Positions 5,162-64,000 of a DNA stretch of 64,000 nt are shown in pieces; the stretch's first letter is position 1, and every line of letters begins with the position of its first letter. Position numbers and translations under genes: made by a program. The notes beneath the pieces are model-generated. The model was not told the origin of the DNA. It did not search any database and saw only the letters and a list, made by a program, of their open reading frames with translations. This stretch comes from Octopus vulgaris (lineage: Eukaryota). The stretch lies in assembly GCA_951406725.2 (NCBI GenBank), contig OX597837.1, positions 12,524,001 to 12,588,000 on the forward strand. The letters are read 5' to 3'.

Positions 5162-5872
5162 AGGAGTGGCTGTGTGGTTAGTCGCTTGCTTACCAACCAC
5201 ATGGTTCCGGGTTCAGTCCCACTGCATGGCACCTTGGGCAAGTGGCTTCTGCAAAGTAGCTTGCTTACCAACCACATGGTTCCGGGTTCAGTCCCACTGC
5301 ATGGCACCTTGGGCAAGTGTCTTCTGCTAAGTAGCTTGCTAACCAACCACATGGTTCCGGGTTCAGTCCCACTGCGTGGCATCTTGGGCAAGTGTCTTCT
5401 GCTAAATAGCTTGCTAACCAACCACATGGTTCCGGGTTCAGTCCCACTGCGTGGCACCTTGGGCAAGTGTCTTCTGCTAAGTAGCTTGCTAACCAACCAC
5501 ATGGTTCCGGGTTCAGTCCCACTGCGTGGCATCTTGGGCAAGTGTCTTCTACTATAGCCTCGGGCCGACCAAAGCATTGTGAGTGTATTTGATAGATGGA
5601 AACTGAAAGAAGCCTGTCGTATATATGTATATATATATATGTGTATGTATATGTGTGTGTATGTTCGTGTGTCTGTGTTTGTCCGACCAACACCGCTTGA
5701 CAACCGATGCTGGTGTGTTTACGTCCCCGTAACCTAGCGGTTCTGTAAAAATGACGGATAGAATAAGTACTGGACTTACAAAGAATAAGTCCTGGGGTCG
5801 ATTTGCTCGACTAAAGGCGGTGCTCCAGCATGGCCCAAGTCAAACCTCTGAAACACGTAAAACAGTAAAGAG
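5162..5872 (+). mobile_element. tRNA-derived SINE (octopus-type) with 5 tandem 75-bp head repeats
   Basis: A-box-like tggctgtgtggt, B-box ggttcagtccc, internal (TA)/(TG) tract and tail ggcggtgctccagcatggcc. accaaccacatgg recurs at 5192, 5267, 5342, 5417 and 5492. Confidence 0.85.
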
Positions 5873-6009
5873 TATATATATATATATATATATATATATA
5901 TATATATGTGTGTGTGTGTGTGTGTGTGTGTGTGTGTGTGTGTGTGTGTGTGTGTGTGTGTGTGTATCGTGTGTGTGTGGTATGTGTGTGTATCGTGGTG
6001 TGTGGTTTT

Positions 6010-6179
6010 TTTTTTAATCGTAGACTCATCGTAGACGCGCGCTAATACCCAGAAGGGCTCGATATGAATCACGACTATAAGATACCCGCTTTTGGTTAAA
6101 CTGCATCGCAAAATGTGGGAGTAGTTAGGAATCTAAATCGTAGGAGACAGACACACAACTTCACTTTTATATATAAAGA
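6010..6179 (-). mobile_element. Helitron, 5' part only (mirror of 62378-62672)
   Basis: Same sequence and same flank (ttcacttgta) as the right-arm copy; the 3' end is deleted. Confidence 0.7.
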
Positions 6180-6812
6180 TTTCACTTGTAGCTTGTTGAT
6201 CGTTTCTTCATGTCAATCAAAACGAATTCGGTTAGATTTATGAACATCGGTAAATATCTTATTGCTGTTCCCGGTATTTGCAACTACGGTAACTTGATCA
6301 ATGGGTAAATGACGCTATTCCAATTCACGAGCATCATATCGTTTCCAGTTTGTTCTCGTTCAATTACATTGTCTTATTATTTCTTCATAGGCATGGTCAA
6401 AGTTACAAATACCAGTAAAAACAATGAATTTATAACGTGAAGATCTTGATATAATTAGACATAAGGCTAGACGGTGGACGCAGAATACATTAACCGCAGT
6501 AAAATACAGCCATACTGCGCTTTATCTACCACGAAGGGATAAACCGCAAATTTGAGACCGGAAGAACTGGAACTCAGAACGTAAAGATGGACGTAAAAGT
6601 TACTTAACATCTCAGCAACATTGCATCCGGTGTCCTAACGAGTCCGCATGCGCGCCACTTTACTGTGATACATTATCGTACGTATTATGATATAAATATA
6701 TTTTGTATAATATGCGTGAGTATTGAGTTCAAATGTTTATCATTACATACCATACAAACGAAATAGAAATATCAAATAGTGTTTATTTCAGATATTGTTA
6801 AGATCCAATCAG

Positions 6813-8108
6813 TATTGGGTCATCAATCCCATAAATAATGCAGTTTTTTTTTCAGCTGCATGAACTAAAGTCGGAGGGAGACGGGATAAATTACCTGCAC
6901 CAACTTGCTATGAAATCAGGTTGTAATTTTACCTTGTACTTATTTTTAGTGCAAGTTTCGAAGAATGCGATTTGATTTTAACAGTTTTTCAATGCTATAA
7001 TTGAAGTGACAAAAAAGCATTTTCAGTATATTTTGCTTTATGAGTTCAATAAAAGCAACAACACAAAAGAAAGCGCGAGGAATATTAATGCAGGAAATGG
7101 GGATCGGACAATAAGCGTAAGCCAGGGTCAACGGTGGTTGCAGAAACTCCAACTTTGGAAACTACAATCTAGAAGACGAACCTCGTCCTGGAAGATCGTT
7201 AGAACTTGACGAGGACGTCCTGCAAATCCTGGTGAAACAAAATCCCATCATAACTGTTGAGGAAGTAGTAGAGAAGCTTAGATTTGGTCATTCAACCTTT
7301 CATTGACACCTGTTTGCCATCCGAAAAGTCAGAAAATTGGGTCAATGGGTTCCTCACAAACATTCCGTTTCTAATCGCGTGCAGAGCGTAAATGTGTGCT
7401 CTTTTTCGTTGTCACGTCTCACGAATAAACCTTTTTTTGGACCGAATAGTGACTGGTGACAAGAAATGGGTTCTGTATAAAAATGTGAATCTCCGAGGAT
7501 AGTGGGCATGGAAAGGAGAAAAACCGACTCCCTAGGCTAAAGAAGGGCTTCACCCACGTAAATTGTTGTTACCTGTTCGGTGGGATATGGAAGGTTTAGT
7601 CCACTTTGAACTTTAAACCAAAACCAAACGATAACAAAGGAGATCTACTGCGAGCAGCTTGAGCGGCTTCAGTCACGCTAGAAGAAAAACAGCATTCTTT
7701 GCTTTCAAGACGAAAGGTGTTCTTCCATCGGGATAATACTCGGCCACATACAGCGAGGATGACATTGGAAAGACTTTTTAATGGGAAACGATGCACCATC
7801 CACCATATTGCTTCATCTGATTATCATTTATTCAGCAGTTTTCAAAATTATTCGGACAGAATAAAAAATGAATTATTCGGACAGAATAAAAAATGAATTC
7901 TGTAGGTCACAATGGTACTGGGAGAGTATTTTTCATCAGGGACAAGTGTATTTTGGAAGAGGGGCCTTGCATGTCTACCAGATAGATGGAAGAGCATTGT
8001 ATAAAATGAAGGAGAGTATACTATAGATTAAAAGAGAAATTTACCTTAATTTTGAAAAATAAATGAAGGATTAAAAACCTCATTTTTTGTCTTTGTTGCA
8101 TCCAATAC
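6813..8108 (+). mobile_element. Degenerate mariner transposon
   Basis: Broken transposase motifs: HFQYILLYEFNK (HTH), WVPH (7347), IVTGDKKWVLY, FHRDNTRPH, SDYHLF. Decayed TIRs tattggg.../...tccaata. Confidence 0.9.
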
Positions 8109-61745: not shown

Positions 61746-62377
61746 CTGATTGGATCTTAACAATATCTGAAATAAACACTATTTGATATTTCTATTTCGT
61801 TTGTATGGTATGTAATGATAAACATTTGAACTCAATACTCACGCATATTTTAAAAATATATTTATATCATAATACGTACGATAATGTATCACAGTAAAGT
61901 GGCGCGCATGCGGACTCGTTAGGACACCGGATGCAATGTTGCTGATATGTTAAGTAACTTTTACGTCCATCTTTACATTCTGAGTTCCAGTTCTTCCGGT
62001 CTCAAATTTGCGGTTTATCCCTTCGTGGTAGATAAAGCGTAGTATGGCTGTATTTTACTGCGGTTAATGTATTCTGCGTCCACCGTCTAGCCTTATGTCT
62101 AATTATATCAAGATCTTCACGTTATAAATTCATTGTTTTTACTGGTATTTGTAACTTTGACCATGCCTATGAAGAAATAATAAGACAATGTAATTGAACG
62201 AGAACAAACTGGAAACGATATGATGCTCGTGAATTGGAATAGCGTCATTTACCCATTGATCAAGTTACCGTAGTTGCAAATACCGGGAACAGCAATAAGA
62301 TATTTACCGATTTTCATAAATCTAACCGAATTCGTTTTGATTGACATGAAGAAACGATCAACAAGATACAAGTGAAA

Positions 62378-62672
62378 TCTTTATATACAAAAGTGAAGTT
62401 GTGTGAGTGTCTGTCTTCTGCGATTTAGATTCCTAACTACTCCCACATTTTGCGATGCAGTTTAACCAAAAGTGGGTGTCTTATAGTCGTGATTCATGTC
62501 GAGACATTCTGGGTATTAGCGCGCGTCTACGCTGAGTCTACGATTTAAAAAAAAATTACCATCATTTTTCCCATTTTTAATGCCTTTTTTTGCTATTATA
62601 TAAGGGAAGTAACTCTCTAAAAATGCTTATATTTCCCTTACAAACCCGAGCAACGCCGGGCGATACTGCTAG
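62378..62672 (+). mobile_element. Complete non-autonomous Helitron
   Basis: A|TC...cccgagcaacgccggg hairpin...CTAG|T. Confidence 0.85.
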
Positions 62673-63339
62673 TTATATATTAAAAGCAAAGACAAATTAG
62701 TTTCGCCTGTGGGTATTAGGTCAAAAGAAATTAAAACTTTAGTACAGAATTCATCCGCTCATATCAATTGTGACAATTTCATATTTTGTGCTGTGGCGTG
62801 GAATAACCGACACCCGAGACGTTACAAGGCAAATAATTGTTTCGTATAAAGCTGTAAGTTATTTTCTTTGTTCACTAGCGAAGCTACATTCAACTATCAT
62901 GCACTAAATATTATATGTGTGTGTGTGTGTGTGTTTGTATTGTATGCACACACACACACACGCACAGACAAACACACACACACACACAGACACAAACACA
63001 GACACACATATATGTTTCAAGGTGTTAAACGACTCCCAAGCTGTGGTAAGCAGGTCAACTACAGACACACAGACAGACACACACTCAAACTCACACACAT
63101 ATACGATGGGCCTCTTTCAGTCTACTCACAAGGCTTTGGTCACGTGGCTACAGTACAAGTTGGTGGCCCAAGGTGGTAAAAGGTGTGACTGGACCCTGAA
63201 TTCCGTGGTTGAGAAGCAAATTTCTTACCACACAGCCACGATACACACACACACACACACACACACACACACACACACACAAACAAACACACACACACAC
63301 ACATATATATATATATATATATATATATATATACTCTAC

Positions 63340-64000
63340 TCTTTTGCTTGTTTCAGTCATTTGAGTGGGGCCATGCTGGAGCACCACCTTTAGTCGAGCA
63401 AATCGACCCCAGGACTTATTCTTTGTAAGTCCAGTACTTATTCTATCGGTCACTTTTACGGAACCGCTAAGTTACGGGGACGTAAACACACCAGCATCGG
63501 TTGTCAAGCGGTGTTGGTCGGACAAACACAGACACACGAACATACACACACATATACATGCACATATATATATATATATACATATATACGGCAGGCTTCT
63601 TTCAGTTTCCATCTACCAAATCCACTCACAAGGCTTTGGTCGGCCCGAGGCTATAGTAGAAGACACTTGCCCAAGATGCCACGCAGTGGGACTGAACCCG
63701 GAACCATGTGGTTGGTTAGCAAGCTACTTAGCAGAAGACACTTGCCCAAGGTGCCATGCAGCGGGACTGAACCCGGAACCATGTGGTTGGTTAGCAAGCT
63801 ACTTATCAGAAGCCACTTGCCCAAGGTGCCATGCAGTGGGACTGAACCGGAACCATGTGGTTGGTTAGCAAGCTACTTAGCAGAAGAAACTTGCCCAAGG
63901 TGCCATGCAGTGGGACTGAACCCGGAACCATGTGGCTGGTTAGCAAGCTACTTAGCAGAAGACACTTGCCCAAGGTGACATGCAGTGGGACTGAACCCGG
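63340..64000 (-). mobile_element. SINE with tandem 75-bp head repeats (mirror of 5162-5872)
   Basis: At least 4.5 units at 63660-64000. Confidence 0.85.

Follow-up and report, generated by a model that had tools for sequence, protein, structure and literature searches.

The SLC17 gene pair and the inverted arms

The 64,000-nucleotide stretch of the Octopus vulgaris genome analysed here (hereafter, the window) carries an intact SLC17/sialin-like MFS transporter gene and a broken copy of it, lying in the opposite arms of a large inverted repeat. The intact gene (19215..20678, forward strand) is a single-exon coding sequence with an unbroken reading frame of 487 codons, and its 487-amino-acid protein matches the Pfam domain MFS_1 (E 2e-55) and, over residues 37-487, the sialin structure 8dwi (E 2e-92). 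Judged by this domain and by the full-length sialin match, the left gene is an octopus SLC17/sialin-like transporter. The best 28 of its 74 protein matches are Octopus and Argonauta proteins, and the closest among those listed is a partial slc-17.2-like protein of O. bimaculoides at 93%, a value contained in the range of 91-95% that separates O. bimaculoides from its O. vulgaris/O. sinensis orthologues in this family. A preliminary description of this DNA had placed the gene in the expanded SLC17/sialin family, and the domain, the structural match and the octopus relatives all bear this out.

The second copy (50111..51571, reverse strand) has 99.2% nucleotide identity to the left gene, from which it differs by 11 substitutions and one 3-nucleotide deletion at codon 461. 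The two genes are convergent and 29,432 bp apart, as had been described (a copy about 99% alike at about 29 kb). The earlier account did not mention that the right copy carries a premature stop at codon 258 (K258*, positions 50798-50800). The two proteins are 98.4% alike. When the differences are polarised by paralogues, three changes and the deletion (codons 171, 251, 258 and 461) are derived on the right, those at codons 346, 383 and 479 are probably derived on the left, and two further changes are ambiguous.

In a self-BLAST of the window, the reverse-strand blocks form one collinear chain running from 5207/64000 inward to 31601/35417, a mirrored arrangement far beyond chance expectation. 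The left arm (5162..31601, forward strand; 26,440 bp) comprises segments that we call A, B1 and C, and the right arm (35417..64000, reverse strand; 28,584 bp) is its mirror. Between them lies a spacer of 3,815 bp (31602..35416) made of the remainder of a repeat element, a (TATAT)n tract, a segment x and a further copy of segment B, termed B2. There is no N in the window and no assembly gap at the spacer. The fold around a spacer of about 3.8 kb, with arms of at least 26 kb, is therefore as first described. The arm start given earlier, 5162, is where the mirror begins in the window rather than a true arm end. A repeat element starts there, which we take to be SINE-like (a short interspersed element) and which encloses an array of a 75-bp piece, and the right window edge cuts the mirror copy of the same array. 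The outer end of the left arm is thus beyond view; the mirror merely runs out of window at 5162, so the arms may be longer. The 75-bp piece is present in about five tandem copies in both arms (5180-5554 and 63654-64000).

The arms are 97.6% identical over 21,252 paired columns of the chained alignment. When microsatellites and gap edges are excluded (clean columns), 373 of 17,509 columns differ (2.1%, or 97.9% alike), with 201 transitions and 172 transversions, and the non-coding divergence is 2.15% (333/15,480). About 12.5 kb is unpaired between the arms, 5,141 bp being left-only and 7,330 bp right-only, and the arm differences include ones of 311 bp and 479 bp. The longest tract without a difference measures 529 bp and includes the first third of the gene. 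Divergence shows no trend with distance from the centre (rho -0.37, P 0.18). A small inversion at 52358-52389 was considered as the cause of a cluster of changes there and rejected. Segmental duplications are blocks of more than 1 kb that are more than 90% alike, and the inverted block described here exceeds both values and is not a single mobile element.

Besides the arm-to-arm relation, three other inverted copy relations are found in the window: between a 76% paralogue and the gene, between gene fragments and the gene, and between a spacer segment and the left arm. The paralogue (1..1057, reverse strand; 76.8% nucleotide identity to the left gene) is the 5' part of an older SLC17 gene that runs off the window edge outside the visible arm, head-to-head with the left gene, and no relative of it above 80% is found among 60 protein-search matches. 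A 270-bp block (1441-1709 and 18619-18888) located 330-600 bp upstream of the start codon is 71% alike between paralogue and gene and, from this conservation, is a candidate promoter or untranslated first exon. The fragment, of 285 bp and likewise absent from the earlier account, corresponds approximately to codons 96-195 and occurs once per arm, each time opposite to the gene of its own arm (8432..8720, reverse strand, 96% alike to the left gene; 59869..60153, forward strand, 98% alike to the right gene). A Pfam search of 81 further short frames reveals no second gene, only three matches over the curated cut-off (Mos1 HTH, GIY-YIG and the gene fragment). The SLC17 coding sequences at 19215-20678 and 1-1057 are intronless in their visible part. 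Sialin genes of other animals are multi-exon; the octopus SLC17 array may therefore descend from a retrocopy, whose parent could be the O. sinensis 'sialin' P0042 (44%, on another contig).

Three copies of one segment and a proposed origin

The order of segments along the window is A-B-C-x-B'-C'-B'-A', in which A and C occur twice and B three times. B1 (15343..17969, forward strand) lies upstream of the left gene and has lost about 480 bp near 17174; B3 (52818..55820, reverse strand) is its mirror; and B2 (32366..35420, reverse strand) is a direct repeat of B3. B2 accounts for 80% of the spacer, which is present as described earlier and is not unique sequence. Over shared clean columns, B2 differs by 2.3% from B1 and by 2.7% from B3. 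Private changes over the 2,236 columns shared by the three copies number 17 in B1, 26 in B3 and 32 in B2, so that equal age is not rejected (P 0.10). The idea that B2 is a clearly older outgroup had come from a count of 42 private changes before masking, and was dropped once microsatellites were masked. The divergence along B is uneven, with 19 differences in 1,466 columns followed by 49 in 1,225 between B3 and B2 (P 0.001); no difference separates the three copies over 52818-53111.

Two junctions delimit B2. At the first (J1, 32360..32370), segment x is followed by B read backwards from its end, and homology at the join amounts to no more than a few letters. At the second (J2, 35341..35426), an (AT)n tract lies between the start of B2 and a repeat element of which about 77 bp remain before the cut; the left arm has this element whole (31525-31662). 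Within the spacer, the (TATAT)n tract with 45 bp of adjacent sequence (31683..31793, reverse strand) is an older inverted copy, 89% alike, of 15299-15421, the end of a GIY-YIG-bearing element.

We consider, with a probability of about 70%, that this is a real inverted segmental duplication, about as old as the split between O. vulgaris and O. sinensis or older, that it arose through template switches at AT-rich repeats, and that it is now in decay, any gene conversion having been patchy and old. The switching mechanism is proposed by analogy with template-switch rearrangements described at other loci (PMC11293582). In such a scenario, a replication fork that had copied A-B-C-x would jump from x, at J1, onto the opposite strand where B ends, with microhomology at most, and copy B backwards to its (AT)n start; it would then jump at J2, via AT-rich microhomology, to the end of C, and copy C, B and A backwards. 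A third junction would have to lie beyond the window. A single event of this kind would yield both arms and the third B in the spacer, and two close events would fit equally. Afterwards, the arms would have drifted by about 2%, gained transposons (DDE_3, Mos1 HTH and GIY-YIG remnants) and suffered deletions, the right gene copy would have become a pseudogene, and conversion tracts would have been short or old at most. With a gene left intact on one side and a pseudogene on the other, the outcome of the duplication resembles the usual birth and death of genes and not a palindrome that repairs itself.

A palindrome of the mammalian sex-chromosome type, whose arms are kept alike by frequent conversion protecting the gene pair, is a different expectation that can be confronted with the distribution of changes. 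The gene (11/1,441) and the 1.9 kb upstream of it (25/1,846), together 17349-20678, differ less than the rest of the arms (2.0-2.4%), although this region was picked after inspection of the data. In the gene, the synonymous and non-synonymous rates are both low (0.9% and 0.7%), which selection alone explains poorly, but the synonymous deficit by itself reaches only P 0.07. Non-coding changes are weakly overdispersed at 2 kb (P 0.02), but not at 250, 500 or 1,000 bp (P 0.34, 0.33 and 0.07), and the longest non-coding gap between changes is not unusual (P 0.30). The low divergence of the gene and its upstream DNA fits an old conversion tract. At 18947/51840, both arms have an A where contigs from all four public sequencing runs considered below have a C; gene conversion on the assembled chromosome, an additional (third) copy or an error in the consensus could explain this. 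At codon 171 (K171N; 51059, with 19727 on the left), the derived letter is found in the right gene and the right fragment only, and letters specific to the fragment stand 48 and 4 bp away, which suggests a short conversion tract of less than 52 bp between the two. These signals hint at occasional exchange between copies, without a sign of upkeep. Against frequent conversion stand the overall identity of 97.6-97.9%, the 12.5 kb of private sequence, the lack of any identical tract longer than 529 bp, and the right gene copy, which has decayed without its stop being repaired by the other arm. Together these make a maintained palindrome highly improbable.

Paralogues or haplotypes

The duplication proposed above supposes that the two arms are adjacent and inverted in the animal, as we infer from the assembly. 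The anatomy of the junctions cannot decide the matter. If an animal were heterozygous for an inversion of the 3.8-kb spacer (breakpoints 31601 and about 35417), an assembler could enter through one haplotype and leave through the other, misjoining two haplotypes of a single locus and giving the same two junctions; the stop codon would then be a null allele. The junctions fit this equally well, including the repeat element that is complete in the left arm and truncated in the right. The preliminary description had taken the private insertions of each arm to mean that the arms evolved separately. They did evolve apart, but this does not separate paralogues from haplotypes, as both gain insertions. 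The non-coding divergence of 2.15% exceeds the heterozygosity reported for O. vulgaris, 1.22% (PMC10700109), which speaks for paralogues, but the ratio is just 1.8, which would also suit haplotypes. On the other hand, the window has no gap, and its spacer of only 3.8 kb is shorter than typical long reads.

Public sequencing runs offer a different kind of evidence. Of 24 runs indexed, 20 contain part of the left gene region, and the contigs of four (X1, X2, X4 and X6, from four studies and under two species labels) were aligned to positions 46600-55600 of the right arm. These runs are available as assembled contigs, in which variants are lost, and the letters examined are those of 40 out of 247 rows; 34 of the 40 rows have left-arm letters at arm differences. 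Both arm types are present at linked sites in three of the four runs, under both species labels. At 46665, 46697 and 46722, X4 and X6 each have a left-type contig together with a contig without the left letters (39.1 of a depth of 80.9 in X4 and 67.3 of 118.9 in X6), and X1 has a left-type contig beside another contig at 46722 and 47855. In X6, which bears species label B, one contig has the left-derived letter at 55468, while another is without the letters shared by the left arm and B2 at 55472 and 55473, that is, right-type, from which it follows that both arm lineages are present in this run. At the stop site, 50800, X4 and X6 have, next to an intact-type contig, another one in which the intact letter is missing (depth 40.3 and 53.9, respectively); we infer that this other contig carries the stop.

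The depths of these contigs are informative as well. Minor contigs within or next to collapsed ones have well under half their depth in X1 (38.6 beside 227.8 at 51995, 39.5 beside 188.2 at 49870) and in X6 (46.1 beside 151.3, 53.9 beside 145.6, 48.8 beside 145.1). Compared with a simulated two-allele bubble, four or five of five picked values in X1 and five of six in X6 fall under the 1% quantile; this count excludes the rows of the three-copy segment B (53129, 53161 and 55468-55479), high-copy bins (48234-48278 and 49155-49539) and 47691. Minor contigs with one sixth (X1) or less than one third (X6) of the depth of the collapsed ones are too shallow for the alleles of one diploid locus. In addition, misjoined haplotypes would require that two deep haplotypes persist across two species labels and that three of the four runs are heterozygous.

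Several observations weigh against the reading of the arms as two paralogues. None of the four depth values of X4 falls under the 1% quantile, and this run, taken by itself, is compatible with a single heterozygous locus. At the unique substitution rows examined, a single type is seen in X2, and X1 and X2 have only the intact letter at 50800, though contigs drop variants. Two paralogues with Q at the stop codon could also yield the second contig seen there. X1 may be the source animal of the assembly, and X4 and X6 have contig ends and most letters in common and may be one lineage, so that the independent witnesses could be as few as two. The depth near 46.6 kb is about 0.55-0.8 of that over the gene, and the depths come without a single-copy control. 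No contig of these runs spans J1, J2 or the spacer, and none of the pieces covers the whole 46600-55600 stretch. Finally, no O. sinensis protein at or above 90% to the left gene was found among the matches listed.

Nevertheless, the shallow minor contigs and the presence of both types in three of four runs favour paralogues over misjoined haplotypes. Half depth over the arms had been named beforehand as the mark of a misjoin, and the depth ratios speak against haplotypes in X1 and X6, not in X4. The arms are very probably true paralogues, and the assembled arrangement is probably that of the animal, whereas a misjoin of two haplotypes appears unlikely.

A third arrangement has to be weighed from the same depths: paralogues in a family of at least three near-identical units, of which the assembly dropped or misplaced one, the true structure not being a two-arm hairpin. 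The depths of X1 fall into classes of about 38, 93 and 240, and its contigs at 47855 sum to 186 beside a collapsed depth of 239.5, with three minor contigs at 36-40. From these contig depths, the gene segment may be present five or six times per diploid genome, which would place a third copy outside the window. The C found in all four runs at 51840, where both arms have A, would also suit a missing unit, as would the order A-B-C-B on the minus strand, which is the start of a tandem unit. However, the sequence at J1, without long homology, is not of the sort that assemblers collapse; an additional copy at another place in the genome would account for the depth and leave the window unaffected; and the depth step could be a library bias. 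We regard a dropped or misplaced unit as improbable. At 50750-50850, a further family of contigs, also intact at 50800, reaches a depth of 660 in X1 and about 190 in X6, and was unseen in X4; the number of yet another SLC17 copy may differ from animal to animal.

For a duplication between paralogues, both arm types under both species labels indicate that it is probably about as old as the split between O. vulgaris and O. sinensis, or older. This split has been dated to 2.5 million years (PMC10700109). Six O. vulgaris/O. sinensis orthologue pairs in the family, placed with a quick version of a protein tree, have protein identities of 96.9-99.7%, and the 98.4% between the proteins of the two gene copies is like that of most of these pairs.

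Family growth, arm-specific insertions and known systems

Recent duplicates exist elsewhere in the family: among ten clusters looked up, O. vulgaris has pairs at 97-99%, and there is also a set of paralogues at 90-92% with partners in both species. The O. vulgaris SLC17 pairs or groups P0106/P0107, P0033/P0100 and P0112-P0115, at 97-99%, have one O. sinensis partner among the proteins listed. They may be young duplicates, haplotypes retained in one assembly, or the result of a collapse in the other, and such pairs are also what misjoined haplotypes would lead one to expect. The preliminary description inferred that repeated inverted duplication may be the way in which this family expands; the event seen here yielded a single intact gene beside a pseudogene. 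A broader scenario is that the SLC17 array grows by repeated fold-back template switching at AT-rich microsatellites, with one episode giving the arms, the third B and the inverted fragments, an older one giving the 76% paralogue, and short conversion among inverted copies keeping the gene and the DNA upstream of it younger than the surrounding sequence. We hold this to be possible but doubtful. Were it true, the locus would be a datable example, variable in copy number in living octopus populations, of cephalopod gene array expansion without whole-genome duplication. Should the duplication alone be real, it would be a base-resolved snapshot of how a gene is born and lost in a family that is among the few reported as expanded in octopus, its junctions would point to template switching at (AT)n tracts, and gene orientation across the cluster in three Octopus species could show whether the array was built by inverted or tandem steps. 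If it is an artefact, it warns that annotated gene pairs at 97-99% in this cluster inflate the family size.

The largest right-only block (39631..43359; 3,729 bp) is a repeat nest with a DDE_3 transposase remnant at 41522-41995. The largest left-only block (12161..13915; 1,755 bp) contains repeat elements together with sequence 99.6% alike to nearby 15671-15905, of which it is a local copy. Within it, 13353-13781 copies this nearby left-arm sequence at 99.2-99.6% and is 93-94% alike to the other B copies; going by these identities, it is a local templated insertion made after the arms split. The left-type contig there has a depth of 228.8 in X1, versus about 95 elsewhere, and of 14.1 in X2. 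Another left-only block (10241..11484) holds an element with perfect inverted ends (10415-11484; 1,070 bp, terminal inverted repeats of 227 bp) inside a (TA)n tract; the element looks very young. Small self-inverted elements are many (45475-45910, 24811-25141, 46981-47312, 41335-41568 and 39495-39680), the first of them being right-only, with 158-bp ends that are 99% alike.

We did not find this locus described in the literature searched, and the supplements of the 2015 octopus genome paper may describe the cluster. A review (PMC6110919) mentions a sialin (SLC17) expansion in octopus with reference to Albertin et al. 2015; the left gene is a member of the expanded family, and the passage concerned is silent on how the copies arose.

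The system is of a known kind, with no sign of Y-like maintenance. Mammalian large palindromes are recognised by arms of at least 8 kb and at least 99% identity (PMC8327919). The inverted octopus arms, of 26.4 and 28.6 kb, surpass this length, but their identity (97.6% over all paired columns, 97.9% over clean ones, with 12.5 kb unpaired) is below the threshold. The likeness to palindromes of the mammalian X and Y chromosomes (PMC8327919, PMC3723533, 10.1101/800185) is limited to arms longer than 8 kb, a short spacer and a gene pair borne on the arms. The octopus locus differs from them in arms of about 98%, large private blocks, a broken gene and no sign of frequent conversion, and the comparison with primate Y palindromes made in the preliminary description is therefore not supported. 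Among invertebrates, Caenorhabditis has convergent or divergent paralogues maintained in inverted repeats, in which the arms are far more alike within a species than between species (PMC1803023). In contrast, the two octopus proteins resemble each other no more closely than orthologues of O. vulgaris and O. sinensis do, and the octopus arms span tens of kilobases.

The DUP-TRP/INV-DUP rearrangements of human disease loci (PMC11293582) resemble the window in their two-three-two profile (A, B, C), in their microhomology junctions and in the likely involvement of template switching. However, the order A-B-C-x-B'-C'-B'-A' matches none of the four conformers quoted from that source, none of which has two of three B copies inverted relative to the first. 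Moreover, neither octopus junction lies in a long inverted repeat pair, J2 keeps its direction through (AT)n, and the octopus rearrangement is old and apparently common to different animals. The closest counterpart is an inverted segmental duplication undergoing birth and death, with which the locus shares a large adjacent inverted block, one intact and one broken copy and an expanded array. Nothing essential differs from this class, to which the octopus locus adds a third copy of an arm segment in its spacer and an inverted gene fragment in each arm.

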